Below, piece by piece: positions 897 through 41,732 of a stretch of 47,379 nucleotides of DNA. Both the position numbers and the translations under genes were made by a program. Location of the stretch: the IMG/VR virus record IMGVR_UViG_2721755497_000004; one strand, given 5' to 3'. Positions within the stretch are counted from its first letter, which is position 1, and each line of letters starts with the position of its first letter. The notes beneath the pieces are model-generated. The model was not told the origin of the DNA, ran no database searches, and saw nothing but the letters and a program-made list of their open reading frames with translations. This stretch comes from a virus (taxonomy: Duplodnaviria > Heunggongvirae > Uroviricota > Caudoviricetes).

Positions 897-905
897 AATC
901 CCTCC

Positions 906-2312: not shown

Positions 2313-2325
2313 AGATTTTCCCCAT

Positions 2326-2359
2326 AAAAAAACCGCAGTGCCGGTTTCCCGGTCTGCGG
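2326..2359 (-). terminator. intrinsic terminator-like hairpin plus U-run between J and stf
   Basis: Inverted repeat ACCGCAG...CTGCGGT with inner CCGG arms (2333-2359), followed on the minus strand by a 7-nt T run (plus A run 2326-2332); 14 nt upstream of the stf ATG. Confidence 0.5.
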
Positions 2360-2688
2360 TAAAAATCGTGGTTTACAGGATTAAAAAGGTGCTATCCGGA
2401 ACCGGAATTCACACAGTGAACTGTGGGTGATCCAGATAATGAGCACTACCGTGATACAAATCACGGTGGTTTTTAACGGTTTTTGCGACACAGAACTTGC
2501 TCCTTATTACGGAGAGGCGCTAACCTGCCACTTGCTTAAGGTAGACGGTTCAGGGCCTCGGGTTAACATTGAAGTTGACTCGGGGCCTTTTCACATCAGG
2601 CCTTCAGGTGTTCCCTCCGGCCATCAGCCAAAGGCACCCGCGCATACTGTACGGTTTTATATCCTTCCGGCAATTCCGGTCATCATGT

Positions 2689-5600
2689 TCACGAAATACT
2701 GATACCCGCCGTGGATTTTTTCATGACCACAACCAGTAAATCACTGATGTATGTTGTCGGCGTCCAGTGGTTCACCCCGTTCGACCACACATTAAACGTC
2801 AGGGTCACATGACCCCGTCCTGCCGGCATATCAATGACGGACGAAAACACCCGGGTGACATCCGTTGCCGGCTCATGAAAAATTACCCTTCCGTTCATCT
2901 GCACCTGTAACTGACACGTGGAATACCATGTTGAAGTGTGATCTTTGCTGGACTGGTGCTCATGTCTCGCCCCCCGGAACAGTACCGGTGGAATGATGAT
3001 CTGCCTGTCGAAGCCCTGGTCATCATAAACGGTGACCGTTATAGTGCCACTGGCATAACTGTTATTCCGTGGGAAAGCTTTCCCCACTGTTTTGACCAGG
3101 TCACCTTCAATCTGGTTTGCAGACAGTTTTCCCAGAATCCGGCAGTTCTGGTTAATGGTCACATTATTGAGCGTGCCAGAGTTCGCATTAATATTTCCGC
3201 TGATATCCGCATTACGGGCCGTCAGCCTGCCTTCCGGCGTCAGGGAGAACACAGGGGGATTGCCGGACGAGGTGATGCTCACCGCAAACAACCGCTTCAG
3301 GAATACGTCGTTCATGAACAACTGATTCCCCTGCGCCACAAACAGCGGCGTGGTGTTGCCGTTCTCCGGGTTAATCATCGCGATACGGTCAGCCTGCAGC
3401 AGAATATTGCTCAGGGTCTGGCCATCAACATCCTCAATCCCCGCACCAATACCAGCAACATACGGAATACCGTTTTTCGTTTTCTGCACCTTCAGCATGT
3501 ACAGTGCGCTCAGGCTGTCATCCGTCTCCTTCTGCACACGCTGTATCTGCTGTATGGTGACACTCTGGTCTTCCAGGATTTTATTGACCGTCTGTGTGAT
3601 TTCATTGCGGGTTTCTGTGATGGTGGTCTTCATCTCCGCCATCTCATCATCAAGCTGACTGTTATCAATCAGCTCCCACATCCCCTGTGCCAGATGTGTC
3701 TTCCCGATTTCTCCTTTGAAAAAGTCCAGATAACCTTCCGCATCATTGCTCGCCCGTCCGGTTGCTTCAACAAAAACGGATTTACCCACCAGGTTGACGC
3801 TGCGCACATAAAACCAGAAATCTGTCCCTGGCTTAATGTGCGAGCCGGAGACGCTCCACTGGCTGCCGGTCCCCAGATAACGGGCGGACGTTTCCACCTG
3901 TGCAGTGTTCGTGATGCGTTTTTCTGAGAACCAGAATTCAAACTGTACCGTCGGATCATACAACGCAAGACGCGGCACTGCTGTTATCTGGAAATAGCCG
4001 GGGGTCAGTTCAATGGTGGCAGGTGCTGCCGGTGCGTTAATCCGGAACGTGGTGATGGCGGCTTCACCCTGCTGCCCATAGCTGTTTATCGCCCTGACCA
4101 TCAGGGTGTACTCCCCCTGTGGCAAACCGCTGAAACGGTGCACCGTATCGGCAGTGATGGCGCTGGTCACCAGACGGCTGTTTTCACCGGTTCCGCTGGT
4201 CAGGCGCAGACTGAAGCGCACGCCCTTCACCACCCGCGGCGTGTCCCATTTCGCCACCGCCAGATACTGACCGTCAGACGCGCTTACCTCCACCGTGAGA
4301 TGCTGTACTGCCGGAGGTGTGACACTGTTCAGCGAACCGGACAACGGCTCAAAGGTGGCACCATTATCCACGATGGCCTCCTTCTCCGGCACATGCTGCA
4401 CCGCCGTGATGGCGAAGGTACCGTCCGCATTTTCGCGGATCGCCACACACCGGAACAGACGGCGGCGCAGTCCCGGCAATGCCAGCCCCCAGATACTGTG
4501 TTCCACCACCCCGTCAGGCAGTGTACTGATCTGTATCCTGTCAGGTGATGGCTGCCCGGTAACATCCACACTCACCGGCTTACCGCTGCCGTTTATCAGA
4601 TTCACCGTGGATGTGCCCTTTTCCGGGAGAGTGACTTCACGGTCAAGCGTCAGGGTCCGGCTGGCGTTGTCGACGGACAGGATCCGCCCGCCGATCACGG
4701 TACCGGCATACGCATTATCACTGATTTCAATGATATCGCCCGGCGTGTGACGCAGTCCCTCCGCCCCCACACTGAAATCCACTGTCTGTGTTTCCAGCAG
4801 TTCGGTCTTTATCACCCACAGGCCTGCCCGGTGAGCCTGACCACGGCTGGTACAGCCGAACGCATCCATCTTCAGAAGATTGCGTCCGTAGCGCAGTATG
4901 GCATCCGGATCCTCCACCAGTTCAGTCGATGTCTGCCAGCCATTCTGCGGATCGGTGTAATTCACCTCAACTGCCGTGTGTCTGTCCTTGAGGGCACTGA
5001 AGCTGTAATGAAAACTTACCCCATCCTCCCCCGTCACCACATTACCGGCGGTATAAGTCCAGACAACATCCGATGGTCTGTCCTGAACAAACGTCAGCGT
5101 CTGTCCGTTCCATACCGGCATACAGCGCATTGCAGAGCAGAAATCCCCCAGCACGTCCCACGCCTTACGCTGTTGTGACAGGTACGCATTAAAGGTCATA
5201 CGGGGTTCTGTACCACCAAAGCCATCCGGAACCGGCTGGTCACAGTACTGTCCGAGGGCATAGAGCGCCCACTTGTCCACATCCGCGGCCCCGAGGCGCT
5301 TTCCCATACCATAACGTGGATGCGTCAGCATATCCCACAGACACCAGGCCGGGTTGTTGCTGTATGCCGGTTTCAGAGTCCCGTCCCAGATACCGCTGTA
5401 TGTACGTTTTTCCGGGTCATAGTTTGACGGCACCTGGATGATGCGCCCGCGGATATGGTAGTTCACCGCCATCTGCTGCCCACCGAACTGCTCCGCATCC
5501 ACCTGCAGCCCCACTATGGCTGTGTTCGGGTAGCTCTGTTTCACATCGATGATTTCGGTGTATGACGACCAGAGCGTTCTGTTCTGCAGCTGGTCCGTGG

Positions 5601-8595: not shown

Positions 8596-9759
8596 TCAGA
8601 ACTGATAAGTCATCCCAACAGCAACGATATTATCTGTCGCAATACCGGCTTTCTGGGTAAATTCGCTTTCATCAATCAGGTTAATTTTATAATCAACATA
8701 AGTGGACATATTTTTGTTAAAGTAATAAGTCGCACCGACATCAATATATTTAACCAGATCCTGGTCGCCATGGTTCACACCACCAACCATAACATCCTGT
8801 CCGCGGGACTGCAGATAAGCCAGAGATGGACGCAGGCCAAAATCGAACTGATACTGAGCAACCATTTCAAGGTTTTGTGCTTTATCCGCAACCCCGGTAT
8901 CACCAAAAGTGGTCATATTCTGGGTTTCGGAATAAATTGCAGCCAGATACAGATTGTTTGCATCATATTTAAGGCCAGTCCCCCACATCTCAGCATACTT
9001 ACCTTTTGCAACGCTGCCGGAATCAACGGACACTTCTTTTTCCGTCACATCCCCCGTTAAAGGATCTTTGACTTCAATAGTTTTGCTACCATTCAGGCCA
9101 TTAACCTGCTTACCTGTACGATCTGACTTAGTATACGCTGCCACAAAACCAAAACCATCAAACTCATAGCTGGCAGAGAAACCATATCCATCACCATTAG
9201 ACTTCTGGAGGTCATCTCGCTCATTTTTTCCCTGATACTGGGCTGCAAAGTTAAGACCATCCACCAGTCCGAAGAAATCTGTATTGCGGTAAGTCAGCAC
9301 TCCGGAAGTACGAGCAGTCATGAAGTTATCAGTCTGCGTCCAGCCATCGCCACCAAATTCTGGCAGAACGTCTGTATACGAACCGACATCATAAGCGATA
9401 CCATAATTACGCCCGTAATCAATGCTACCTAAATCAGCGAATTTCAAACCGGCAAATGCCAGACGGGTTTTATTGCCTGCCGTCCCTTCAGACTCGGCCT
9501 TATTACCTGAAAACTGATATTCCCAGTGACCAAAACCTGTCAGTTGATCATTGATCTGAGTCTCACCTTTAAAACCAAGACGTGCATAGGTCTTATCGCC
9601 ATCATCACCTTTATCGTCTGAGAAGTAATGGAGAGCAGTTACACGACCATAAAGATCCAGCTTATTACCATCTTTATTATAAACTTCTGCTGCCTGAGCC
9701 CCCGCAGCAAACATCACTGCCACTGCAACAGCAGAAAGTGCCACTGTCATTTTTTTCAT
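8596..9759 (-). CDS. OmpC/NmpC/Lc-family outer membrane porin (phage moron)
   Basis: 387-aa ORF with cleavable signal peptide (…[10 protein letters not shown]), enterobacterial general-porin motifs and C-terminal ...GMTYQF; flanked by AT-rich DNA; inserted between tail genes M and L. Confidence 0.9.
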
Positions 9760-9992
9760 TTATTTAGTCCTTTTTAATCTTTTAACCGAACTGTTCACAA
9801 CAGAAACTGTCATAAACATTATTTAAAATATTTAAAATAGCTGCCCATTCAATATTCAAAATGTAAGAGAATGTAAAAAAAAGATCCAGGCAACACTTTA
9901 TAATAAGAAATGAGACAAATAAATATATAAAATAGCAATTTATTATTTTAATTATTTTCACTACTTTTATTTATTTTATTATTTTATCCACT
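9760..9992 (-). promoter_or_regulatory. AT-rich upstream region of porin moron (probable autonomous promoter region)
   Basis: 233 bp of very AT-rich sequence between M stop and porin start, atypical for the surrounding tail operon. Confidence 0.35.
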
Positions 9993-24038: not shown

Positions 24039-24403
24039 ACATCCCGGTTTCTTCCACCATCGCACCGGAAAAGCGACTATGAGGGTAACCCTGCGTCTGT
24101 CAGCACAGTAAAACCCGGTATGCATCGCTTTTGATTATCTCCGCACACTCGTGCAGAGGAGTATCCCGTAATGGCTGCGGTCTCTGTTAATGCGGGAACA
24201 CGGCGACAATACAGCGCCAGTTATGGGTATGAAAATCCTCACCAGCGCAAAGCTATATCAACCTGTAGTGATGCAAAATTACCCGTAGCAAAAGGTATCT
24301 CCGCACATATGCAAGAACACAGCCTTAAAAACTCAGATGAAATAATGATTTGTTAAGATTTATATTATATGTTCGACATGGTACAACACTTAAGGGATGA
24401 AAT

Positions 24404-24946
24404 ATGAACAGATACTCTAAACTTCAAATTCAATTACATTGGCTGACTCTCGTATTAATAGCTATAGCCTGTGCTGCAATGGAACTTCGAGGTTTGTTTC
24501 CTAAAGGGTCTTCCTCCTATTTGCTTATGAGAGAAACACATTACAATGCTGGTATATTTATTCTTCTACTGATGATAATAAGAGTAATTATCAATAATAA
24601 ATATATAACACCAGCTATTACGCCGCCCCCACCTGCATGGCAAATGATATCAGCCAAATTCATGCAAACCCTGTTATACATATCTTTTTTGGTGTTACCA
24701 GTATCAGGACTTGCAATCATGGTTTTTGGAGGTAAAGCATGGAGCCTTCTGGGGATTGATATTCCCACTTTCGCTAACACCGACGGAGAAGTAAAATCCG
24801 TAGCCAAAACTATTCATGAATCACTTGCAAATATTGGTTATTTATTAATCACACTCCATGCTGGCGCTGCATTAATTCATCATTATATTCAGAAGGACAA
24901 TACACTTGTCAGAATGCTCCCTGAGCACCAGCATGATAAAAAGTGA
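24404..24946 (+). CDS. cytochrome b561 family protein (CybB-like, moron)
   Basis: 180-aa ORF with conserved b561 motifs (…YSKLQIQLHWL…, …HESLANIGYLLITLHAGAALIHHYIQKDNTLVRMLP), four predicted TM helices, AT-rich, RBS AAGGGA. Confidence 0.8.
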   Translation: MNRYSKLQIQLHWLTLVLIAIACAAMELRGLFPKGSSSYLLMRETHYNAGIFILLLMIIRVIINNKYITPAITPPPPAWQMISAKFMQTLLYISFLVLPVSGLAIMVFGGKAWSLLGIDIPTFANTDGEVKSVAKTIHESLANIGYLLITLHAGAALIHHYIQKDNTLVRMLPEHQHDKK

Positions 24947-24968
24947 GGAAGAGAAGAATCATCACTCT

Positions 24969-29812: not shown

Positions 29813-29847
29813 TGCAGCCCGTTACCATTCGTAGCGGGCTTTTTTTG
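29813..29847 (+). terminator. plus-strand hairpin plus T7 run
   Basis: AGCCCG...CGGGCT stem followed by TTTTTTT. Confidence 0.45.
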
Positions 29848-29850
29848 TCC

Positions 29851-29876
29851 ATAAAAAAGCCCCTCCGGAGAGGGGC
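29851..29876 (-). terminator. minus-strand intrinsic terminator (GCCCCTC-CGGA-GAGGGGC plus U6)
   Basis: Perfect 7-bp GC stem preceded on the plus strand by AAAAAA; lies downstream (minus sense) of repeat element A. Confidence 0.55.
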
Positions 29877-29907
29877 ATACTAGCTATATATCCATTTATC
29901 ATTGGCT

Positions 29908-30037
29908 GCGTGGTGCCGGGTGCCTCCCGGTGAGCTCAGCCTGGTGTCACTGAGCCCGCACATTCTCGATCCAAGTTATCGTCGGAGATAATACCTGATA
30001 CACCAGACGCCCCTCCGCACAGGGGGATTCACCACGC
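29908..30037 (-). repeat. structured repeat element A (closing helix GCGTGGTG/CACCACGC)
   Basis: 5' arm plus CCGGG-TGCCT-CCCGG hairpin ... variable core ... CCCCT-CCGCAC-AGGGG hairpin plus GATT plus 3' arm; strand assigned from the flanking terminators. Confidence 0.7.
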
Positions 30038-30265
30038 GCAGAGAAGGATACTGAACACTATTTTCTCCAGGCAATATGCAATAACATGAAGTGTGAGATG
30101 ACTTACAATTATAAAAAACAGCCTACAGAATACTCCTAAATAAAGCCATATCAAAATGAGTAACACAAAAAGGAACCAGGCAAAAATTTACGAGCAGGTA
30201 TTATCCAGCAACAGTTCAGACGCCATAACTTATTGCCGATAGCTACCATCAATAATTTCTTTCAT

Positions 30266-30289
30266 AAAAAAGCCCCTCTGAAGAGGGGC
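30266..30289 (-). terminator. minus-strand intrinsic terminator (GCCCCTC-TGAA-GAGGGGC plus U6)
   Basis: Near-identical copy of the element A terminator, downstream (minus sense) of element B. Confidence 0.55.
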
Positions 30290-30316
30290 TGACATACGCA
30301 TTTGCTTTCATCATCA

Positions 30317-30439
30317 ATATGGCGCCGGGTGCCTCCCGGTGCTCCATAACTGATTAATATGGAACGCGGTTTCATTCAGTTGCATTCATGAATAACACTC
30401 TAATCAGTCCGCCCCGCCGCTTAGGGGGATTCGCCATAT
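30317..30439 (-). repeat. structured repeat element B (closing helix ATATGGCG/CGCCATAT, compensatory change)
   Basis: Same architecture as A; terminal helix sequence differs from A but remains perfectly complementary. Confidence 0.7.
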
Positions 30440-30574
30440 AAATTGAAAGTACTGAACACATCTGTCACAAACAATATGCAATTGTATGAATTGTGAGATT
30501 ATTATCAATAACACAAAATTACAGCTCTAGTACATAAACAGCAGATTAAACAAGAACAACAAAAGTATTGAATT

Positions 30575-30700
30575 GCACGGTGCCGGGTGCCTCCCGGTGA
30601 ATTCTGCAATGACCAGACAGAATCCGCAACTTGCTACTAACGCTAATGCGACCAAGCCTAACAGTCATTATGCCCCTCCGCACAGGGGGATTCACCATGC
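30575..30700 (-). repeat. structured repeat element C (closing helix GCACGGTG/CACCATGC, one mismatch)
   Basis: Same conserved hairpins GGTGCCGGGTGCCTCCCGGTGA and CCCCTCCGCACAGGGGGATTCACCA; different variable core. Confidence 0.7.
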
Positions 30701-30829
30701 GCTAAAAAAATACAAAACGTCACGTCACTCTGACAATACGAAGCACCATAAAATGTGAGTTATTTATCAATTCTTAATTCTGGTTACAGGAATATTCCGA
30801 ATCAAATCTTTAAAAAAAGAAATTCAAAT

Positions 30830-30932
30830 GCATGGTGCCGGGTGCCTCCCGGTGAACAGACCGTCCGTGATACCAGTCGGCAACACAGGAAATTAATGGT
30901 ATCACCCCACCGCACAGGGGGATTCACCATGC
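30830..30932 (-). repeat. structured repeat element D (closing helix GCATGGTG/CACCATGC)
   Basis: Same conserved hairpins; shorter variable core containing its own 9-bp hairpin GTGATACCA/TGGTATCAC. Confidence 0.7.
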
Positions 30933-31121
30933 AGGCGTTTTCTTAGCAAACTAACTGCGCGCCCGGCAACTCCCAACCACATAAAACGTGGAGTTTGTAG
31001 CATTTATGCACATAACTCACAGGGGTTATCTTAAAAAAAGCTGACCATGCTTCCCCGGCAACGCAATAACTTTATTCCCTGAAGTGGCATCCCCCGTATT
31101 GTCGGCAGGCTCAAAAAGGAG

Positions 31122-31323: not shown

Positions 31324-31344
31324 AAAAACCGCCAGTTAAGGCGG
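31324..31344 (-). terminator. minus-strand intrinsic terminator (CCGCC-AGTTAA-GGCGG plus U6)
   Basis: 5-bp GC stem followed on the minus strand by TTTTTTG. Confidence 0.5.
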
Positions 31345-31587
31345 CATTCAAACAGACAACAGGATTTTTTCGTAATTTTAACAACTTCGGGGTGGCGCAT
31401 CGTCAGCCCCTGTCAGGAAGTACCAGAGCTCCCACCAACAATATCCCCCCATTCAGCGTTATCAAACACAGCACAGAAACTATCAATGTTTGCTGTTACA
31501 GTTAGGGAAAAAACGATAAATACGCCACAGGCTCTTTTTGCTGTGAAGTAAAAACTGATCTGAAAGACTGCTCATCATTTATTTTGC

Positions 31588-31665
31588 TGGACCGTCACCG
31601 GGGACTCGAACCCCGCATTTTCAACATAAAAAGGTTGATGCTCTTTCCTGATGAGCTAGTGACGG
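31588..31665 (-). tRNA. tRNA-like gene with 8-nt anticodon loop (possible unusual tRNA or pseudogene)
   Basis: 7-bp acceptor stem CCGTCAC/GTGACGG, encoded CCA, D arm GCTC/GAGC, T arm CGGGG-TTCGAGT-CCCCG, but anticodon arm TCAAC-CTTTTTAT-GTTGA has an 8-nt loop. Confidence 0.45.
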
Positions 31666-31667
31666 CA

Positions 31668-31742
31668 TGGTTGCCTTGCTGGATTTGAACCAGCGACCTG
31701 GCGATTATGAGTCTCTCGCTCTCACCACTGAGCTAAAGGGCC
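31668..31742 (-). tRNA. tRNA with CAU anticodon (Ile2/Met-like), acceptor and anticodon stems imperfect
   Basis: GGCCCTTTAGCTCAGTGG...CTCATAA...GCTGGTTCAAATCCAGC...CCA; D and T arms canonical; 3 terminal acceptor pairs and 2 anticodon-stem pairs mismatched; one nt short. Confidence 0.55.
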
Positions 31743-31782
31743 GGGAACAGAATAATAATGGTGCGTAATTAATTCTGCAATC

Positions 31783-32841
31783 TCATCCCTTCTGGCTGAC
31801 TAAATCCTGAACTTCCCTGACCGTCTGCTCAAAACGCTCAGTATCCAGCTCAACGCCAATCGCACGACGCCCCAGTGCCAGCGCCGCTTTGACTGTCGAA
31901 CCCGACCCCATGAAGAAATCCGCAACCAGGTCACCCGGACGACTACTCGCTCTGATTATCTGCTGCAGCATTTCTGCCGGTTTTTCGCACGGATGTTTCC
32001 CGGGATAGAACTGCACCGGTTTATGCGTCCACACATCGGTATATGGCACCTGCGCCGTCACGCCAAAATACCGCCGCAGATGCTTATATTCACACTGCAG
32101 TTCCGCATACTGTCGGTTCAGTAAGGTATACGCGGCAACCAGCTGGTGGTGGGGTTTTTCCAGTTCACCGCGTTGATGCTTTTCTTCTGCCACCCGGGCA
32201 AACAACGCCTGTAATTTCAGATAATCGCGTTCATTCGGTAACTGCCACTGACTGGTACTGAACCAGTGCGACACCATGTTTTTCTTTCCTGTGGCATCAG
32301 CAATCTGTTTTGCCGTTATCCCCAGAGCGGCACGCGCATCACGAAAGTAAGATATCAGCGGGGCCATCACATGCTGTTTCAGTGCCCTGCCCTTCGCCTC
32401 ATAGCCATCATCTTTCGGGCGATACGGTCCCTGATAATGTTCCGCAAACAGAATGCGCTCTGTGGCCGGGAAATACGCACGCAGGCTTTCCTTGTTGCAC
32501 CCGTTCCAGCGTCCGGATGGCTTCGCCCAGATGATATGGTTCAGCACATTAAAGCGTTCACGCATCATGATTTCGATGTCGGATGCCAGGCGATGCCCAC
32601 AGAACAGGTAAATGCTTCCCTCGGGCTTTAATACCCGCCAGAAGTGCGCCAGACACTGGTCCAGCCACTTCAGGTAATCATCATCGCCATTCCACTGGTT
32701 ATCCCAGCCATTGGGTTTTACTTTAAAGTACGGCGGGTCCGTGACTATCAGATCGACAGAGTTTTCAGGTAAGGTCTGGATAAATTCCAGGCAGTCAGCG
32801 TTGATTAACTCACAACTGGATATTTTTACAGTATTAAGCAT
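31783..32841 (-). CDS. DNA N6-adenine (or N4-cytosine) methyltransferase, beta class
   Basis: 352-aa ORF with DPPY catalytic motif (LIVTDPPYF) and C-terminal SAM-binding FxGxG (DFFMGSGST). Confidence 0.85.
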   Translation of the reverse strand: MLNTVKISSCELINADCLEFIQTLPENSVDLIVTDPPYFKVKPNGWDNQWNGDDDYLKWLDQCLAHFWRVLKPEGSIYLFCGHRLASDIEIMMRERFNVLNHIIWAKPSGRWNGCNKESLRAYFPATERILFAEHYQGPYRPKDDGYEAKGRALKQHVMAPLISYFRDARAALGITAKQIADATGKKNMVSHWFSTSQWQLPNERDYLKLQALFARVAEEKHQRGELEKPHHQLVAAYTLLNRQYAELQCEYKHLRRYFGVTAQVPYTDVWTHKPVQFYPGKHPCEKPAEMLQQIIRASSRPGDLVADFFMGSGSTVKAALALGRRAIGVELDTERFEQTVREVQDLVSQKG

Positions 32842-33414: not shown

Positions 33415-34236
33415 CTATCGCGTTACCCTCTTCAACTGCCACTCTGCCCATGCCTCTGCAATATCAAACCGGACCACCAGCGTGTCATAGAATTGCTTAA
33501 CTGTTTTTTCCCATGAAGCGCGTGTTATCTGATTTGTCACCTCACATATGGCATCAAATGCCTCCGTTGAAGGTAATCTTTCATAGCCACGCCCACCACA
33601 ACGCTGACAGTTTCTGAAAACCGGCATACCTCGTTTTTCAGACTCTTCACGATGAATGGCAACACCGCGCCCACGGCAATCTTTACAGGCAGTGGAGACC
33701 TCCCCCTTTCCACCACACTCCGGACAGGCAACTTTTACCACCTCCCTGACTTTTTTCCATTCCTCCCAGTAAGACGGATACACGCCTTTTGTACACTTTG
33801 CCCATACTGGTGGCTTACCATCCGGATACTGAATCTTGTTTGTAAAAATCTCGCTTTCAATAAATTTTTTTCCGTGACAGCATGGGCACTGTTTTTTGCT
33901 CGCCGCGCTCCGGGCATAATCCTCAAACGCATACGAAGCCATAATGCGCATCACTACCGGTTTTATTTCTGCCGGAAGTTTTCTTAACGCTGCCATCCGA
34001 TCACACCGACTGAGAGCGTATTCTGCCAGCAGTTCTGTTGCCCGCTCCCTGTCATTCATACTGATGCCCATTTTCCCAAGGAACGCAGAAAACCCCATCT
34101 CAGCCCGATTCTGTGTCATGCCCTGCGCGGCCATCACATCAGTGATACTCAGCGCATCTTTTGACGTTGAGGCCGATGCATCGGTCAGGCAAGGGGATTT
34201 TGGGGAGTAGTATTTCGGTAAATCTTCCAGTTTCAT
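33415..34236 (-). CDS. late antiterminator Q-like protein (QuuQ-type, multiple CxxC zinc-ribbon motifs)
   Basis: 273-aa ORF directly upstream of pR'/tR' and downstream of rusA (ATGA-coupled); four CxxC motifs. Confidence 0.6.
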   Translation of the reverse strand: MKLEDLPKYYSPKSPCLTDASASTSKDALSITDVMAAQGMTQNRAEMGFSAFLGKMGISMNDRERATELLAEYALSRCDRMAALRKLPAEIKPVVMRIMASYAFEDYARSAASKKQCPCCHGKKFIESEIFTNKIQYPDGKPPVWAKCTKGVYPSYWEEWKKVREVVKVACPECGGKGEVSTACKDCRGRGVAIHREESEKRGMPVFRNCQRCGGRGYERLPSTEAFDAICEVTNQITRASWEKTVKQFYDTLVVRFDIAEAWAEWQLKRVTR

Positions 34237-34607
34237 TTTTTGACCTGCTCTTCATGCATTATGGGGTAAATCTTCACCCCCATACGTCCACCAGATACTG
34301 GCTGACCACGAACGATATTGGTTTCATCAAACTGCTCATCGTCCATTAACACTCCCGCATGCGTCAGCGCATCCAGCGGTGCTTTCAGGATATTGTCCAG
34401 GTCGCGACGACGCTTATCCGGTGGCTCTGCAATCACCTTTATCGCCAGCCTTCCGGACAGGCTTAATTTCAGCCGCTGCTGGCGAACAATAAGCGCCACA
34501 GCCCGGCGATAACGCTTTCCCTCCTCCGAGATAAAATATGTGCTGCCACGGCGTCGCCAGTAAGTGTTCACCGTCGGCGGGTAAGGTAAAACCAAATCTA
34601 TGAGCAT
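34233..34607 (-). CDS. rusA: Holliday junction resolvase RusA
   Basis: 124-aa ORF; RusA signature incl. ...PDKRRRDLDNILKAPLDALTHAGVLMDDEQ... Confidence 0.85.
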   Translation of the reverse strand: MLIDLVLPYPPTVNTYWRRRGSTYFISEEGKRYRRAVALIVRQQRLKLSLSGRLAIKVIAEPPDKRRRDLDNILKAPLDALTHAGVLMDDEQFDETNIVRGQPVSGGRMGVKIYPIMHEEQVKK

Positions 34608-34619
34608 CAGTCACCTCTT

Positions 34620-35669
34620 TTACCCAAGCACGCCAGTTGCAAAGGCGTGATCAAGAAAACGAAAAATTAAATCAACCTGAGAACCATGCTTTTCTTCGAA
34701 CGCCAGCGGATCCGCATGAAGCTCGTTGTGATGCTCCCGACACAGCGGTAGCGTGAAAATATCGTGAGATTTTGTCCCCATTCCGCCCTGACCATGACCA
34801 ATCAGGTGATGGGGATCGTCGGCTGGCTTACCACAACACGCACACGGCTGTGTCTTCACCCAGCGTGTGTATTTCTCGTTAACCCAGCGGCGACGTTTAG
34901 GTCGTTTCATGAAAGATTCCGGAGACTCAGGATCAACGGCAATGCTGACCACCGTCTTTTCCTGTGGTGGGTTCTGTTGCTGGTGGGCGTGAGGCAGCGG
35001 CGCAAGATTTTTTGTGCGCTGTTTCAGTATGCTGGTGGCGGTCTGCTCTCCCGGTACGATGTCGCTTTCACGGTACATTGAGCGGATTTTTTCCGCACGC
35101 AACCCCAGCGAACGACGTAATACCGCTTCCGGTAGCGCGTCCGCCACCTGATTGCGGACCGCCCACCAGGATAATTCAGCCAAAGATAATTCACGCTCCT
35201 GCGTACCGCTTATTGCGTGACCGATGACGTCAATCATCCATGCTGACAGGTTTTGATGAGCAAGTTGCTCGAGTGATTCGGATGTCTGGTCACGCAGCTG
35301 GTTGTCGCAGTGCCAGCACAACACCATTGCGCCGGTACCATAACGGTGAATGACGGTTTCGCTGTGATGATAATCGCCGTGTGGCCACTGGCAGGATTTA
35401 ATATGGCGCAACAGCCAGTCAGACAATGCACCAGCACCACCAGCAGCACGAATCACCCGTGCGTTACTGAAAAACGGCAGCAATGTTTTGTCTTCCACTA
35501 GCGGCTGGCGAACGGCAGGAACGACCCCGGACGGCAGATTACGCATGCTTTTCGGTTCCGGCTCCACCAGTACCCGGGTATTGTGGAATACCGGCATGGA
35601 TTCACGGCCCGGCTTAACGATCACCAGCCCGAGTTCCGGTACCAGAACAGGTCGAAGTAATACCCGCAC
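34620..35669 (-). CDS. DUF968/YdfU-like protein with C-terminal HNH-like motif
   Basis: 349-aa ORF (true start may be the internal MPVFHN Met); C-terminal CACCGKPADDPHHL...REHHNELH; Nin-region synteny. Confidence 0.5.
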   Translation of the reverse strand: MRVLLRPVLVPELGLVIVKPGRESMPVFHNTRVLVEPEPKSMRNLPSGVVPAVRQPLVEDKTLLPFFSNARVIRAAGGAGALSDWLLRHIKSCQWPHGDYHHSETVIHRYGTGAMVLCWHCDNQLRDQTSESLEQLAHQNLSAWMIDVIGHAISGTQERELSLAELSWWAVRNQVADALPEAVLRRSLGLRAEKIRSMYRESDIVPGEQTATSILKQRTKNLAPLPHAHQQQNPPQEKTVVSIAVDPESPESFMKRPKRRRWVNEKYTRWVKTQPCACCGKPADDPHHLIGHGQGGMGTKSHDIFTLPLCREHHNELHADPLAFEEKHGSQVDLIFRFLDHAFATGVLG

Positions 35670-35670
35670 G

Positions 35671-35949
35671 TTACCTCCAGATGCGTTGCTGGAATGTGCG
35701 GGACGGACGCGGTGGGCGTTCGGAGTAAGGAAGCCTGACGGAGATTATCCAGTGACGATAATCGAGGCTGAGGGCTTTCTTAATCTCGTATCCGTGTCTG
35801 CGGTAGCACTGAATTAGCCACTCGGCCTGTTCTTCAGTGCATGGGGGATGCTGGAACCAGTCAGATTTGAAAGTGCGGGAACGCCGCCCGTGCCTGCTGG
35901 CAAAGACGGCAGAATCATCAGAATTGTGTAATTTGGTATCGTGCGCCAT
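35671..35949 (-). CDS. hypothetical protein
   Basis: ~93 aa from the MAHDTKLHN Met; longer ORF-track start would overlap the hok terminator. Confidence 0.35.
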   Translation of the reverse strand: MAHDTKLHNSDDSAVFASRHGRRSRTFKSDWFQHPPCTEEQAEWLIQCYRRHGYEIKKALSLDYRHWIISVRLPYSERPPRPSRTFQQRIWR

Positions 35950-36021
35950 CGGTTGTCTCTGCTGGCGCAGCAGGTGCCAGTTGTTCAGGCTGGCGTGCGA
36001 ATTGTAAACCAGAATGCTAGG

Positions 36022-36048
36022 AAAAAACAAAACCCGCCGAAGCGGGTT
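36022..36048 (-). terminator. intrinsic terminator downstream of hok (AACCCGC-TTCG-GCGGGTT plus U-run)
   Basis: Perfect stem with tetraloop followed on the minus strand by TTTTGTTTTTT; nearby second hairpin GGCGAGGGA-TTTC-TCCCTCGCC (36088-36109). Confidence 0.55.
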
Positions 36049-36116
36049 AAGTGCGGGTGCGTTGAGGATGCCTGCCACATCAGAGGTGGCGAGGGATTTC
36101 TCCCTCGCCGGGTCTC

Positions 36117-36272
36117 TTACTCCTCAGGTTCGTAAGCTGTGAAGACAGCGACCTCCGTCTGGCCGGTTCGGATTCGTACCTCGCAGAGGTCTTTCCTCGT
36201 TACCAGTGCCGTCACTATGACGGTTAAACAGATGACGATCAGGGCGATTAACATCGCCTTTTGCTGCTTCAT
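36117..36272 (-). CDS. hokD: Hok-family type I toxin
   Basis: 51-aa MKQQKAMLIALIVICLTVIVTALVTRKDLCEVRIRTGQTEVAVFTAYEPEE, canonical Hok; nested in the longer mok-like frame starting at 36329. Confidence 0.85.
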   Translation of the reverse strand: MKQQKAMLIALIVICLTVIVTALVTRKDLCEVRIRTGQTEVAVFTAYEPEE

Positions 36273-36329
36273 AGCCTGCTTCTCCTTGCCTTTCGGCACG
36301 TAAGAGGCTAACCTAGATTTGCCGTTCAT
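36117..36329 (-). CDS. mok: Mok-like overlapping reading frame
   Basis: 70-aa frame (MNGKSRLASYVPKGKEKQA…) extending upstream of and in frame with hok. Confidence 0.45.
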   Translation of the reverse strand: MNGKSRLASYVPKGKEKQAMKQQKAMLIALIVICLTVIVTALVTRKDLCEVRIRTGQTEVAVFTAYEPEE

Positions 36330-36483
36330 AGATTGAGCCTCAGATTAATGTTAAGCGTCTTGCAGGACGCGTAATGTTAACTGGGGCTTTTCTCTATCTG
36401 CCTTTGGTGTTCATGCCTGAGACAGATAGCCTCAAGCACCCGCAGCCATTCTACTTAACTCCCGTTACCTCGCCAATATAAAA

Positions 36484-36573
36484 TCAATCAGAAAGGCGAT
36501 CCATAAGAACAACAGCAAGACAATAAATTGCCATTACAGCTGCAATAGCCAGCGCACATTTGAGAACCAGCAC
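36484..36573 (-). CDS. 29-codon hydrophobic small ORF with strong RBS (possible small membrane toxin-like peptide)
   Basis: AGGAGG then 5 nt then GTG CTG GTT CTC AAA TGT GCG...; peptide (M)LVLKCALAIAAVMAIYCLAVVLMDRLSD; not in ORF track (<60 aa). Confidence 0.35.
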   Translation of the reverse strand: MLVLKCALAIAAVMAIYCLAVVLMDRLSD

Positions 36574-37351
36574 GACAACCTCCTGTATTGGACGTACACC
36601 AGTCCTGATAAATATGAGGCTGTCTCATCATTGATGAGATACAACTATTGGGTATAGTTTCTGTGATTTTGTTCTGTAGAAATGGAACACAACAACCAGT
36701 CACCACCAGCACTTCTTTAAATACGCCAAGTCCGACGCAAGCTAACCTTCTAGTCCGCTTTGAGCGAAAAGCGGACATTCCTGTACAAAGCATGGCGTTG
36801 GAATACAGTAAGATCATTGATTAATAAGTGAGTCGAATCAGAACAGTAGCCAATGAAACAAAAAATTCGCAAACGTAACCAAGACTGGATATCAAGGCAA
36901 TTGAAACGTGCGCAAAAGAGGAAATGCCGTTAAGTTTCTTTATTAACTTTCCCTCAATATGAGCAACTGCTTGTAATGGTGTGCGCCTTAAACGGCATGG
37001 TCGTCTCAAGCCGGACTGGAGCCGCGCATTGTTTCATTAGGGTTGGGGAGAAGTGCCTATTGTTGGGCAAAAAGTAGTGTTTACTGGTTTGAGGGATTTG
37101 ATAAGGAGCAATTGCCTGTTGAATGGGGTGCGCTGTGGGAAGATGCCTGAATATATTGGTTTTGATTTGATCTCACAGTGCAACACACAATCAACTCTTA
37201 CAGTCTGCTGTGAGCAAAAATTGCACATTTCTAACAGCCTTCCGTGTGAATCAACGAGGAGCAGGTCACTGGCACAGAGGGGACGTTTAACCCCGTCCGG
37301 CCTCCGCTGAATTGGCTGCCAATTCCGTCCGGTCGTACCTGCCTGAGCCGT

Positions 37352-37576
37352 CTACTTCAGTAAAAACTGAATCAGCATAGCAAACATATATACTGTCGCT
37401 GCAATTTGTATTGTTCGCACTCCCCATCTGAGATATCGCCATTTATGACGTTCTCTGGCATCGGCTTCTTCAATGGTGGATTCAGTATGCTTTCTTCTCT
37501 TTGTCCTGAATGGATCAATTACCCATAGGGCAAGAATAAAGAGAACGATTGTTTTCTGAAGTATGGGATGATCCAC
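37352..37576 (-). CDS. hypothetical small membrane protein
   Basis: 74-aa ORF with two hydrophobic segments, GTG start. Confidence 0.3.
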   Translation of the reverse strand: MDHPILQKTIVLFILALWVIDPFRTKRRKHTESTIEEADARERHKWRYLRWGVRTIQIAATVYMFAMLIQFLLK

Positions 37577-37820
37577 GAAGAGTGACTCCGGCCTGCTCGC
37601 TGATACAATCAGAATAGATGAACAATCCCGAAATAATCAATACTAAATGTATGGCAATTATTTATTTTCGTCCTGGCTGGACTTTGTGACCTGCTCCCAA
37701 CAAATTAACATAGCACAATGTAAGCAAGTTCTGCTTTTGGCACAAAGCGGACAACCACGCTAGCTCTACCCTGTGCCACAAAATGTCAATTTGCATCTGA
37801 ACTAATGCACTTTAATCTCG

Positions 37821-38243
37821 TCACTTCAATAAATACCGAACATCCCCCTGATAAAACGACAATATGCGCTGCATAACTTCGCTCTTCCGGCACTCGCGAC
37901 AGATTATGTTTAGGCGACTGTCGTAGCGACGTATTTCTCCGTCAGGTAATGACCAGATAAGGTCCGGATCAACCACAACCGGTTTCTTCAGCTTTGCCCT
38001 CGATAATTTTTTGCGGGCATTTTGCCAGTCTTTACGAGCCTGTTCAGACGGGAATAACCCGTAGCCAGAATTGTATACATCGCCACTGGCAACCAGCTCT
38101 CTGGCCAGAACGCTCATCAGATATCTTGTTGCCCCAGTTTTAGCTTCCAGTTGTCGTAACGTCTCGCGCCCACTCTGGCGTACGAGTTCAAGAACCTGCC
38201 CTTTAATTTTTTCCCGCTCTTCTTGTGTAAAAACTTTTGCCAC
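37821..38243 (-). CDS. hypothetical protein
   Basis: 140-aa ORF, GTG start with RBS AGGAGG, downstream of the replication gene. Confidence 0.45.
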   Translation of the reverse strand: MAKVFTQEEREKIKGQVLELVRQSGRETLRQLEAKTGATRYLMSVLARELVASGDVYNSGYGLFPSEQARKDWQNARKKLSRAKLKKPVVVDPDLIWSLPDGEIRRYDSRLNIICRECRKSEVMQRILSFYQGDVRYLLK

Positions 38244-38283
38244 AAGCCCTCCTGAAAATTACCTCATGACCAGAAATTAACAC

Positions 38284-39369
38284 TTACCCCCTGAAGCCCG
38301 GCGGAATTTCGTTATCCGGTTCAGAAATATGATTCACACAACGCTGGTTGTTCGTGCCGCTTACCGGGAGCAACCAGTGGTTCTCAAAATTCCGGTCCGG
38401 TCCAAAAAACGTCGTCGCTCGCTGAACAAATTCCGTTCCCGTTTTCCCGGTAGCCGCCAAGTATCTTGCGTAACGCCTCACGCCATCCAGCATGGCCTCT
38501 GGTGGCACCCCCTCGCGTAATCTGGCCTTCCAGGCACTGAAAGCGGATTTCTTCGGGTTTGCCCCGGCACGCAACGGGTATTCCCGCCAGACCTGTTCGA
38601 ACACATCCGGATAATCCACTCGTCCCACAGGCTGCCCGGTGTTTTCCGGGACTACCTGATCGGCTTCCCGCTGAATGGCGGAATCGGCTTCAGGCTGCTG
38701 CAGTTGGTGTGATTGTTCCGGCCTTGCGGTCATCGCCTGCTGCACAGCGCCCGAATCGGCTTCCGGTGTCGTGCCTGCTGGCTGACCTGGATTGACGTTC
38801 TGAACATCCACTGCCTGGTTCGTGGCGATTTTTTCGCCATGAAGCATAGTATTTTTATCCTGATCCTGTTCTTTCTCCTGTTCCTGTTCTTGGCTTAGAA
38901 GCCCCTTTAAAGCCTCTTCGAAGCCCCTTGCTGAATTCCGGCGATTATTCCGCCTCACATCCAGATGGAAATCCGTTTTATATCTGTCGTAAAAGGCTGA
39001 CAGAAAGGCGTTTTCAGGTAATGATGCATACTCATTCCTGACACCTGCACAACGGTTATCTCCAGGCTTCAACGTTTCCCCAACCTGCCAGGCTGCCATT
39101 TCATGGACCCAGACCATCTCGGCATCATGGTCATAGCTACAAAAACCAGCTTCAACAGCCCTTTTAAGCCCCTTCGAAGCCCCTTCCGGACCAAGCCCGG
39201 TTTCATGAGCAAGGTACAAAACTGGCAGGTAATACAAACCCAACATATTTGCGTGAGGGGATGTCATCAGGTAAAAAGCAACAACTTGCGCTTCTGCACC
39301 CGCCTTTCTAAGTTCTCTCCCCGTTTCTCCCAGCCAGAATCGCGGGGAAACTTTTGCATAATCACGCAT
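38284..39369 (-). CDS. putative phage replication protein (YdaU-like)
   Basis: ~361 aa from the MRDYAKVSPRFWLGE Met (RBS GAGGTGA); lies downstream of the cro-like gene where O/P-type replication genes sit; Gln/Glu-rich linker. Confidence 0.45.
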   Translation of the reverse strand: MRDYAKVSPRFWLGETGRELRKAGAEAQVVAFYLMTSPHANMLGLYYLPVLYLAHETGLGPEGASKGLKRAVEAGFCSYDHDAEMVWVHEMAAWQVGETLKPGDNRCAGVRNEYASLPENAFLSAFYDRYKTDFHLDVRRNNRRNSARGFEEALKGLLSQEQEQEKEQDQDKNTMLHGEKIATNQAVDVQNVNPGQPAGTTPEADSGAVQQAMTARPEQSHQLQQPEADSAIQREADQVVPENTGQPVGRVDYPDVFEQVWREYPLRAGANPKKSAFSAWKARLREGVPPEAMLDGVRRYARYLAATGKTGTEFVQRATTFFGPDRNFENHWLLPVSGTNNQRCVNHISEPDNEIPPGFRG

Positions 39370-39448
39370 GTTCACCTCGTCTGGAGCCAAACCTTCCTCT
39401 GGTTATAATCTGTGATTCACCAATCAACAGAACCAGAGGAGGTTCGAC

Positions 39449-39844
39449 ATGGATTTTGCAACTATCACAAGTAGCGTTGTGTTGAGTGCGTGTGTTGCAG
39501 GCGTGGTTTCGCTGGTTAATGGTGCCTGGCAACGCAAATCGGAACGAACCATTGAAGCGCAACGCCGGGCTGCTGAAGCCAGAGCAAAAATAAGAGAAAT
39601 GGCTCTCACCCTCGCATTGAAAGAATGGGAGCTCCACCAAACCATATCGAAGGCAAAGGGGTATGGTGTCAGCGGCCCAGAAGTTTACGTCTTTCGATAC
39701 TTTCGTATGCTCAACCTGATGGAGGAAGACAAATTCACGATTGAAAATCTCAGACTGATCCAGTACGACTCCATGTGTGCTGTTGCAGCAATTCAGGCAG
39801 AGATCGAGCGATATCGGGAGAAAAACGGCCTCCCGATGCCATAA
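39449..39844 (+). CDS. hypothetical membrane-anchored coiled-coil protein (counter-oriented moron)
   Basis: 131-aa ORF with RBS GAGGAGG; N-terminal TM then charged helical region; opposite orientation inside the early-right operon. Confidence 0.5.
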   Translation: MDFATITSSVVLSACVAGVVSLVNGAWQRKSERTIEAQRRAAEARAKIREMALTLALKEWELHQTISKAKGYGVSGPEVYVFRYFRMLNLMEEDKFTIENLRLIQYDSMCAVAAIQAEIERYREKNGLPMP

Positions 39845-39848
39845 ACAA

Positions 39849-40070
39849 TCAGCGTTTTTCATATTTCCAAATCCTCATATCAGGCTTGCGCCCAATGAAC
39901 CGACGAAGACAATTTAAAGTCCATCGGGTGAAGTAATCCCTGAAACCAAAGAGATACCAGGTGAACAGATTCACGATAAAATGTCCGGCCAGAGCCCCAC
40001 CAATACCACAGGCAAGAACAGTAAAAAAATCAGGTAGATTCACAGCCCCCTCCGTCATTGTTAACGCCAT
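39849..40070 (-). CDS. hypothetical small membrane protein
   Basis: 73-aa ORF with ATG start and a hydrophobic core. Confidence 0.35.
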   Translation of the reverse strand: MALTMTEGAVNLPDFFTVLACGIGGALAGHFIVNLFTWYLFGFRDYFTRWTLNCLRRFIGRKPDMRIWKYEKR

Positions 40071-40078
40071 CCGTGCTT

Positions 40079-40504
40079 CTAGTGCATCACCACGGCATTT
40101 CCTGCCGGGCCACCACGGTTCATCTGATTGAAACCGGCAATCGCCACTGCGACAAAATCATCAGCGTCTCTCACCAGTCGTTCCCGCGTCTCCACCAGCT
40201 CCCGAAAATAGGCTGAACTGTGGCTGCGCATTCGGGCCACCAGCAAAGGTGGCATTGCCTTTTCGATCGCTGGTAACAACGCCTGAATTTTTTCAACAGC
40301 ATCAGGGGTGTCTTTCTCTACCCAGCGGAAAATTTTCTGGGTATTACGAGCTAGGGCTTCCGGATGGCTGTCGCCGTACAGTTCCGGAAATGTCATTCCC
40401 AGTTCAAAATACGCTTTGGTAATCTTCGCAGTTGGTACTTTCTCGCCATCCGGATGCGCCCAGGCATTCATCGCCATGCGGATGTGCTCATGGCTGATTT
40501 TCAT
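40079..40504 (-). CDS. ydaT: YdaT-like protein
   Basis: 141-aa ORF MKISHEHIRMAM..., directly downstream of and overlapping ydaS as in the Rac prophage. Confidence 0.55.
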   Translation of the reverse strand: MKISHEHIRMAMNAWAHPDGEKVPTAKITKAYFELGMTFPELYGDSHPEALARNTQKIFRWVEKDTPDAVEKIQALLPAIEKAMPPLLVARMRSHSSAYFRELVETRERLVRDADDFVAVAIAGFNQMNRGGPAGNAVVMH

Positions 40505-40811
40505 GAATCATTTGCCTCTTGATATTTCGGGTATGCTCGTTTTCGTCATTTGGTTGCTTCATCAACATATTCAGCGAATAGCATGACGAGCGTCGTAAGT
40601 ATGACCAGTCAACATCAGGACGAAGTTCTTCGCACAGAACACCACCTCTTGTTGCACGTTCAATTGCTGGACATCGCTCAGCAGGCAACTGACGTACACC
40701 TTTGATCCATTGATTTACGCTTGGAGGTGATACACCTAAAAGCCTAGCCATTGCAGATTGCCCACCGACAACAGCACACGCTCGTTTGAATGAATAGTTC
40801 TCTTTTTTCAT
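40488..40811 (-). CDS. ydaS: Cro-like HTH regulator YdaS
   Basis: MKKENYSFKRACAVVGGQSAMARLLGVSPPSVNQWIKGVRQLPAERCPAIERATRG..., HTH Cro/CI type; divergent from the repressor. Confidence 0.7.
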   Translation of the reverse strand: MKKENYSFKRACAVVGGQSAMARLLGVSPPSVNQWIKGVRQLPAERCPAIERATRGGVLCEELRPDVDWSYLRRSSCYSLNMLMKQPNDENEHTRNIKRQMIHENQP

Positions 40812-40842
40812 CGAATGAACTCCAAAAAAACACGAAACAATA

Positions 40843-40908
40843 TTAGGCGACGCCTAATGCAAATGTCAATAGGCGTCGCCTAACACAAATGAAGTAGGGA
40901 TTGCCTAA
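40843..40908. promoter_or_regulatory. operator region: palindromic TTAGGCGACGCCTAA sites between ydaS and racR
   Basis: Two near-perfect 15-bp palindromes (40843-40857, 40869-40883) and a third degenerate half-site (40895-40908). Confidence 0.5.
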
Positions 40909-40936
40909 TGCAATGAGCATAGGAGAGTATTAAGCA

Positions 40937-41413
40937 ATGCTTAGTGGTAAAGACTTAGGCCGAGCGATAGAGCAGGCCATTAACAAAAAAATTGCATCAG
41001 GATCCGTCAAATCAAAGGCGGAGGTAGCGCGTCACTTCAAAGTCCAACCACCATCAATCTATGATTGGATTAAGAAAGGTTCGATAAGTAAAGATAAACT
41101 TCCAGAGCTATGGCGTTTCTTTTCTGATGTGGTTGGCCCAGAGCATTGGGGGCTTAACGAATACCCCATACCAACCTCCCTCATTTCAGATACAAAAAGT
41201 GAACTTTTAGACATAAACAGCCTTTATCAAGCCGCCTCTGATGAAAAAAGAGCCATTGTGGCTTTTCTCTTATCAGAAAATGCCACGGAACCTAGTTGGG
41301 TTGATCATGACGTTCGCGCCTACATTGCCACAATGGAGATGAAGGTAGGTAAGTATTTGAAAGATCGAGAATCAGAACGGAAAAGCCAGAACATCACCAA
41401 AACGGGAACTTAA
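40937..41413 (+). CDS. racR: prophage repressor (RacR-like)
   Basis: 158-aa ORF, RBS AGGAGAG, N-terminal HTH (…SKAEVARHFKVQPPSIYDWIKKG…), divergently transcribed from ydaS. Confidence 0.65.
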   Translation: MLSGKDLGRAIEQAINKKIASGSVKSKAEVARHFKVQPPSIYDWIKKGSISKDKLPELWRFFSDVVGPEHWGLNEYPIPTSLISDTKSELLDINSLYQAASDEKRAIVAFLLSENATEPSWVDHDVRAYIATMEMKVGKYLKDRESERKSQNITKTGT

Positions 41414-41480
41414 ACTTATATGGTCTGATGGGAACTTCCTAGAGCCCGTTATCTAGCCCCCCATCACCTCTTCCACATAT

Positions 41481-41540
41481 CATCGCCTATTAGGTTTGCG
41501 TCAAAAACATTAGGCTAAGCCTATTGACAATTAATTAGGC
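41481..41540. promoter_or_regulatory. additional TTAGGC-type palindromic sites downstream of racR
   Basis: TTAGGCTAAGCCTAT palindrome at 41509-41523 and related half-sites. Confidence 0.35.
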
Positions 41541-41732
41541 ATTACCTATAGTTCTCCCATACCACCCCACCCCGCCCACAGAACACCGGGCAATACTTCG
41601 AGTTACCCGGCAGTGGTCAGGGGTTAAGTAGCCAGCCTGAGGCGTAAGAACATGACGGCAGGGTTCAACTTTAATAACTATGCAGCAGGTTTTTGTTCCG
41701 CTCCCCCGGCGTTAAGGGGAAATGAGGTCAAC

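Follow-up and report, generated by a model that had tools for sequence, protein, structure and literature searches.

The closest described counterpart of the locus analysed here is the slot for accessory tRNAs in lambdoid phages of the Stx type, which in phage 933W contains, in order, pT, ileZ, argN, argO and stx2AB. We analysed the corresponding slot of IMG/VR record IMGVR_UViG_2721755497_000004, a stretch of 47,379 bp (hereafter the window, meaning the whole of the analysed DNA) that represents a lambdoid E. coli prophage, apparently complete from the integrase through the tail fibres. ARAGORN finds exactly two tRNA genes in it, both on the minus strand: gene 1 (31668..31742, (-)), a tRNA-Ile2(CAU) of the ileZ type, 75 nucleotides (nt) long, and gene 2 (31588..31665, (-)), 78 nt long and derived from a phage tRNA-Lys(UUU). 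A sequence-only reading had singled out the two as adjacent minus-strand tRNA-like genes with non-canonical features, sitting where Stx phages carry ileZ-argN-argO. Both genes are detected by ARAGORN and by Rfam, every structural detail was confirmed on reading the sequence, and the pair does lie in the position of 933W ileZ-argN-argO, downstream of the Q gene, of pR' and of a methyltransferase gene, and upstream of the lysis genes. Judged by this synteny and by a pT-like element in front of the pair, the window's tRNA slot is the accessory slot of the Stx-type phages. Its content is not the Ile(CAU)-Arg(UCG)-Arg(UCU) triplet: only two tRNAs are found, and the second has a Lys-type anticodon. 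We consider it likely that the two genes are rare, derived and decaying alleles of a common lambdoid tRNA-Ile2/tRNA-Lys cassette, dispensable passengers in an intact prophage, and probably still transcribed.

Gene 1 was characterised by ARAGORN, Rfam, alignments, folding and the annotation of relatives by the Prokaryotic Genome Annotation Pipeline (PGAP). ARAGORN places it at 31743..31669 (-), with anticodon CAT. In the register of ileZ it reads GGCCCUU-UA-GCUC-AGUGGUGA-GAGC-G-AGAGA-CUCAUAA-UCGCC-AGGUC-GCUGG-UUCAAAU-CCAGC-AAGGCAA-CCA. The D and T arms are perfect and the anticodon loop is CUCAUAA. The acceptor strand GGCCCUU, in contrast, faces AAGGCAA with pairs 1-72, 2-71 and 3-70 mismatched, and the anticodon stem AGAGA/UCGCC contains two mismatches, A27.C43 and A29.G41. 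The first of these is already found in canonical ileZ, and A29.G41 alone is new.

The descent of this gene is clear from its alignment with 933W ileZ: 73 of 76 aligned positions match, the first 69 nt being 98.6% identical, and CAU stands in the same CUCAUAA loop. The two genes also share the slot downstream of Q, the pT-like element, the D and T arms, and pairs C4-G69 and C5-G68. Gene 1 departs from ileZ, and from its other relatives, by its length (75 nt versus 76 nt), and from ileZ by exactly three changes: C29>A, one G missing from the 3' acceptor strand, and an adjacent C>A. The last two convert AAGGGCCACCA into AAGG-CAACCA. All three changes break base pairs, C29>A removing 29-41, and the deletion together with C>A removing 1-72, 2-71 and 3-70.

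The damage is visible in every structural comparison. Against the Rfam tRNA model RF00005 (gathering threshold 29 bits), gene 1 scores 47.6 bits, which is above threshold, the match being local and confined to model positions 4-67; canonical tRNA-Ile alleles reach 71.8-72.5 bits, so that gene 1 stands about 24 bits lower. Its minimum-energy fold (-20.6 kcal/mol) is not a cloverleaf, and canonical alleles fold at about -34 kcal/mol. Redrawing the boundaries does not restore a 7-bp acceptor stem: 4 contiguous pairs form in the ileZ register, or 5 with C3 bulged out, and 4 of 7 in that of ARAGORN, and the upstream leader offers no complementary strand that might rescue the helix. For either gene, the sequence-only reading had left room for canonical cloverleaves once boundaries were redrawn; ARAGORN and folding give none.

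Which functions would suffer can be judged from the determinants of tRNA-Ile for TilS and IleRS, which we take to be C4-G69, C5-G68, C29-G41, U12-A23 and an A73 above a full acceptor helix. Gene 1 has C4-G69, C5-G68 and U12-A23; C29-G41, presumably an IleRS identity pair, is replaced by A29.G41, and pairing is lost at the top three acceptor positions. Without these three pairs, processing by RNase P, aminoacylation and binding to EF-Tu should all suffer. Because the acceptor pairs and C29-G41 are lost, gene 1 is probably a pseudogene in effect. AUA represents 16.6% of the Ile codons of the prophage (7.9 per 1,000 codons), about twice the E. coli average, a level of use that fits a codon-compensation rationale for ileZ in a phage that appears to tolerate its loss.

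Gene 2 presents a different picture. It was characterised by ARAGORN, Rfam, its sister allele, folding and covariation, and reads CCGUCAC-UA-GCUC-AUCAGGAAA-GAGC-A-UCAAC-CUUUUUAU-GUUGA-AAAUG-CGGGG-UUCGAGU-CCCCG-GUGACGG-U-CCA. All its stems are perfect (acceptor CCGUCAC/GUGACGG, D GCUC/GAGC, anticodon UCAAC/GUUGA, T CGGGG/CCCCG), all 21 stem pairs are Watson-Crick, and U73-CCA is encoded. Its anticodon loop, CUUUUUAU, has 8 nt, owing to one extra T in a run of T residues (T4>T5). ARAGORN reports it at 31665..31588 (-) as 'tRNA-???', type '?(Lys|Lys)', with anticodon (tttt). The match to RF00005 is full length at 47.3 bits, the extra base being placed as an insertion in the anticodon loop; for comparison, the sister tRNA-Lys scores 53.2, argN 54.8 and the common C33 allele of the family 44.4 bits. 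The minimum-energy fold is a perfect cloverleaf (-27.5 kcal/mol). A pairing that would give it a 7-nt loop, with UUU at 34-36, was sought and rejected, C31-G39 being the sole closing pair that keeps a 5-bp stem.

The alignments trace gene 2 to a phage tRNA-Lys(UUU) whose scaffold is that of argN; it is not argN itself. Its nearest group is formed by 95-3322, A8 and 2012C-4221, with loop CUUUUAU, where 74-75 of 78 positions match; the figure for the 95-3322 allele, a tRNA-Lys(ttt) according to both ARAGORN and PGAP, is 75. The Ecol_881/PhiR47_1 type, with loop CCUUUAA, is far commoner and matches at 68 of 78. From its nearest group, gene 2 differs by the extra T and by two G>A changes in the variable loop. 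Canonical lambdoid tRNA-Lys(UUU) alleles, which PGAP and ARAGORN call tRNA-Lys, occupy the same position in the cassette and, unlike gene 2, have 7-nt loops. With 933W argN, a tRNA-Arg(UCG), it shares the second place in the cassette, C1-G72, U73 and a 9-nt D loop of the form AUCrGGAmA, and 58 of 78 positions match; it differs by its U-run anticodon of Lys type, by its 8-nt loop, and by the absence of argO after it. Neither short-word BLAST nor a permissive Rfam scan found a third tRNA or a remnant (argO, Thr, Gly) downstream, and the window is without stx. Of the ileZ/argN/argO identity implied by the sequence-only reading, the first name therefore stands, since gene 1 is an ileZ allele, and the other two do not.

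That the family of gene 2 is under structural constraint was established on 18 distinct alleles, argN included, with shuffles and slid registers as controls. The cloverleaf shows covariation at five pairs (both sides changed) and 96.6% of cells paired; 0 of 500 shuffles reach the observed values, and no slid register approaches them. On this comparative evidence the family is a genuine, structurally constrained tRNA, and because the family as a whole is supported as such, the loop of the window is an outlier within it.

Both alleles are derived. Pairs of a tRNA-Ile with a tRNA-Arg or tRNA-Lys that match the locus are found in 284 phage records and in 3,061 of 5,426 complete E. coli genomes. 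Chance matches are thereby excluded, the two features being unmistakably homologous to canonical phage tRNAs. In the outgroups 933W, Ecol_881, PhiR47_1, 95-3322, A8 and 2012C-4221, the tRNA-Ile has 76 nt with AAGGGCCACCA, and the second tRNA has 77 nt with a 7-nt loop, whereas AAGG-CAACCA, A29 and the T5 run occur in the clade of the window only. Since every outgroup has the 76-nt tRNA-Ile and the 7-nt loop, we conclude that the lesions are the derived state.

They are also rare and linked. Counted with short diagnostic queries against the 5,426 genomes, the T5 run occurs in 6 (M1, M3, M18, CI5, PG20180057 and A39), and the acceptor lesion of the tRNA-Ile in 6, which are the same genomes. The 7-nt sister allele CUUUUAU is present in 14 genomes and the CCUUUAA allele in 747. 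Pattern scans for an 8-nt loop on this scaffold retrieved one IMG/VR contig and, in Joint Genome Institute (JGI) metagenomes, one match; the two have an identical sequence, in which the tRNA-Ile lesion is present too. A scan of one genome per bacterial species gave three unrelated matches to the 8-nt pattern, none of them within tRNA genes. Some carriers have further changes of their own. In A39, the T stem has a C>U change, the CCA end is interrupted by an additional C, and PGAP no longer calls the tRNA-Lys, while CI5 and PG20180057 have one further tRNA-Ile change apiece. In A8, which belongs to the sister group, the T loop has a U>G change.

The scenario that we favour is the following. Gene 1 descends from an ileZ-type tRNA-Ile2(CAU), a lysidine-dependent AUA decoder, and gene 2 from a phage tRNA-Lys(UUU) with the scaffold of argN; damaging mutations then arose in both within one rare phage lineage. 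The damaged tRNA-Ile would no longer be efficiently processed, charged and delivered to the ribosome. The extra U of the tRNA-Lys probably comes from replication slippage in the U-run, and with the resulting 8-nt loop the normal decoding of AAA/AAG is in all likelihood crippled. Transcription of the cassette probably continues, from the pT-like promoter or by Q-dependent read-through, and the tRNAs appear dispensable, so that damaged alleles may be kept as neutral passengers.

Several observations weigh against this scenario. Gene 2 is flawless outside its loop, with no stem-breaking change, compared with three in gene 1. In the M1 and M18 prophages, PGAP annotates the same two intervals as tRNA-Ile and tRNA-Lys and sets no pseudogene flag on either. 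The lesion-bearing cassette lies behind methyltransferase alleles 88-99% identical to that of the window and behind differing Q genes, and its hosts come from mouse, human and an Australian rodent, which argues against an accident in one clone. Substitutions in the cassette number 0-3 per 155 nt versus about 0.3-2% in the flanks, a rate comparison that involves few changes and mosaic flanks. Given the varied methyltransferase and Q backgrounds, the cassette has therefore survived mosaic recombination among seemingly intact phages. Such persistence fits neutrality and function alike.

The probable decay of both genes has consequences for annotation. RefSeq lists the two as an ordinary tRNA-Ile and tRNA-Lys, despite a broken acceptor stem in one and an 8-nt loop in the other, and such genes should not be counted as functional in tallies of prophage tRNAs or in codon-compensation arguments. 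The locus also illustrates how fast accessory tRNA cassettes change in lambdoid prophages, damaging mutations being found in several lineages.

Three other explanations concern function. The sequence-only reading had hesitated between decaying genes and functional oddities such as a frameshift-suppressor-like tRNA. In the latter case, gene 2 would be a working +1 frameshift or quadruplet-decoding tRNA that reads AAA-A or AAA-G as Lys, and thereby recodes a phage gene or perturbs host translation during lytic growth. The anatomy is that of the classical suppressors, one base having been added to the anticodon run of a perfect tRNA, and gene 2 does carry the extra anticodon-loop nucleotide (T4>T5, stems perfect) expected of a frameshift suppressor. 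A single-base insertion producing an 8-nt loop is likewise found in sufD (tRNA-Gly), sufG (tRNA-Gln) and SufJ (tRNA-Thr) (PMC9094753; PMC4238358), and sufD and sufG are cited as natural examples of such anatomy (PMC9094753). These suppressors were nevertheless selected in the laboratory and their activity was demonstrated, whereas gene 2 is known here as a sequence. The persistence of the T5 allele across mosaic phage backgrounds is a further point in favour of a function.

Against a function of this kind stand the following data. On the late-gene strand of the prophage, we found no pair of open reading frames in frames 0 and +1 with an in-frame AAA-A/G in their overlap, and no prophage gene is annotated as frameshifted in M1 or M18. 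The five-T allele is present in 6 genomes against 761 with 7-nt alleles, and it is always linked to a clearly broken neighbour tRNA. The flanks of the loop (C32, A37 and U38) are the same as in the 7-nt sister, although changes in the flanks usually improve quadruplet decoding, and efficient quadruplet decoding usually requires extra mutations at the sides of the loop (PMC9094753). In that study, one anticodon base was inserted in one E. coli tRNA per amino acid, and seven XYZZ plus two XYYZ constructs decoded quadruplets; no lysine construct was among the functional decoders (PMC9094753). Moreover, 36-UAA-38 is reported to be strictly required for the t6A37 modification (PMC13276492); gene 2, with U36-A37-U38, lacks this motif, as does its 7-nt sister, which likewise has U-A-U.

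Decay is favoured over frameshift decoding because the lesions are derived, linked and rare, and because some carriers have accumulated private mutations. Of the two options left by the sequence-only reading, decay is thus the one to which the comparative data point; the other fits the anatomy of gene 2, and a recoding target was not found on the late-gene strand of the prophage. We consider a working frameshift tRNA unlikely, and would be surprised if gene 2 proved to be a natural phage-borne tRNA that promotes +1 frameshifting on AAA-N and is maintained through lambdoid recombination. If it did, it would be a rare natural case of expanded-anticodon decoding on a mobile element.

Alternatively, the altered loop may be an adaptation, by which gene 2 escapes host nucleases that target tRNA-Lys, or serves as a decoy for them, while retaining some Lys decoding. 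For phage tRNAs, resistance to host tRNases by way of an altered anticodon stem-loop has been proposed or demonstrated (PMC10264068; PMC12409363). tRNA-Lys(UUU) is a target of PrrC and of the PARIS nuclease AriB, which acts above all on Lys(UUU) and Thr(UGU) (PMC12409363). The phage scaffold has G39-U40-U41 where AriB requires U39-C40-A41, and the common allele of the family has an unusual C33. A phage precedent exists in the tRNA-Lys(UUU) of phage T5, which, like gene 2, is phage-encoded and differs from the host tRNA in the anticodon stem, at the AriB site (PMC12409363); unlike gene 2, to which its sequence is unrelated, it has a 7-nt loop and a demonstrated capacity to neutralise AriB (PMC12409363). 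Escape from AriB would nonetheless already be given by a stem sequence common to all alleles, and the extra U adds nothing obvious to it. Among the alleles of the family, that with the 8-nt loop is the least frequent; such a loop should be detrimental to decoding, and nothing in the window suggests a matching nuclease. This explanation we hold to be improbable.

The relation of these cassettes to PARIS can be noted separately. The phage tRNA-Lys (window 31588-31665) is without the AriB cleavage site U39-C40-A41, cut between C40 and A41, while the tRNA-Thr in the cassette of relatives keeps U36-A-A-U-C-A41 (seen with the tRNA-Lys at 3116-3270 of a related locus, L003). We had considered the Ile-Lys-Thr-Gly cassette of these relatives as an anti-PARIS device, an idea that is weakened by the AriB site retained in tRNA-Thr(UGU).

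A third explanation is that the tRNA-like elements act outside translation, for example as sites at which RNase P or RNase E would process the late transcript, either punctuating it or freeing the small RNA (sRNA) repeats located downstream. The two tRNAs indeed lie between the methyltransferase gene and four tandem sRNA copies of STnc100 type, on the same strand, and the fold of the tRNA-Lys is intact. Canonical alleles would do equally well in this role, however, which leaves the lesions unexplained, and the broken acceptor stem of the tRNA-Ile would weaken recognition by RNase P. We regard a role of this kind as very improbable. Finally, a homopolymer miscall in the T-run, a change of length typical of long-read errors, is ruled out for practical purposes as a source of these oddities, together with other sequencing or assembly errors, by the presence of the same run in six complete genomes, drawn from at least 4 projects, as well as in a metagenome contig of independent origin. 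Each time the run is accompanied by the tRNA-Ile lesions, and these do not alter a homopolymer.

The alleles that we take to be decaying are found in prophages that otherwise appear whole. The window is 99.96% identical, across 31.8 kb, to the prophage adjoining potC in the mouse E. coli strain M1, and 99.5% identical to the prophage of E. coli M18, with a mosaic early region. This early region (replication and immunity, window 34413-41558) is 84-90% identical to the M18 prophage or cannot be aligned with it, and the 99.5% identity applies to the late region.

Along the minus strand, which is that of the late genes, the order is: a Q-type antiterminator, a small open reading frame, a DNA methyltransferase, the two tRNAs, four STnc100-type sRNA copies, a DUF6645 gene, the holin and the lysozyme. 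The Q-type late-gene antitermination protein (33415..34236, (-)) was recognised from the list of open reading frames, from PGAP and from synteny with Q, pR' and the tRNAs of 933W. The DNA methyltransferase (31783..32841, (-)), directly upstream of the tRNA pair, was recognised from the same list and from PGAP annotation of the M1 and M18 relatives. Between it and gene 1 lies the pT-like promoter element TTGCAG-N17-TATTAT (31752..31780, (-)), which ends 10 nt before the 5' end of the tRNA-Ile. The 933W record annotates the homologous element as 'pT, putative tRNA promoter', and in an alignment of four upstream regions, that of the window included, both hexamers are invariant in otherwise diverged sequence. 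The element scores under the threshold of a scan for consensus promoters. About 240 nt downstream of the tRNA pair, a terminator scan detects a hairpin resembling an intrinsic terminator, GCCGCC-TTAACT-GGCGGT followed by TTTTTT (31328..31345, (-)).

Related cassettes show how variable the content of this slot can be. The commonest is Ile(CAU)-Lys(UUU)-Thr(UGU)-Gly(UCC), found at 91 of 120 IMG/VR loci. The scaffold defined by C1-G72, U73 and a 9-nt D loop occurs with three anticodons: most relatives have Lys UUU, 933W argN has Arg UCG, and one locus, with loop UUUCUAA, has Arg UCU. This suggests that anticodons are switched within phage tRNA cassettes. The common tRNA-Lys allele has the loop CCUUUAA, with C33 in place of the near-universal U33, as well as an A51.C63 mismatch in the T stem. 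It was seen at L003 (3116-3192) and at 114 of 120 IMG/VR loci (L012-L131), and PGAP leaves some copies unannotated. C33 in this allele may be an adaptive change (for example, nuclease evasion) or the mark of a widespread crippled tRNA.

The four tandem STnc100 copies (RF02076), between the tRNAs and the DUF6645 gene (window 29847-30962, (-)), score 133, 99.6, 100.5 and 76.6 bits. A single copy is present in 933W, just downstream of stx2B and beside AsxR. According to a 2026 preprint, STnc100 is related to the PasD sRNAs, and the copies of the pasA/pasD genes described there are not tandem duplicates. In A39 (L007, 4357-5201), which has the most degraded tRNA-Lys allele, the downstream DUF6645 gene is annotated as frameshifted.

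Elsewhere in the window, where early genes give way to late ones, a toxin-antitoxin locus of hok/sok type is found at 36267-36441 (-) and 36117-36272 (-); its sok RNA reaches 110 bits, and the annotations of M1 and M18 include hokD. Two cargo genes, mapped from M18 and M1, are annotated as porin OmpC, among the tail genes (window ~8600-9760), and as cytochrome b, near the lysis module (~24400-24950).

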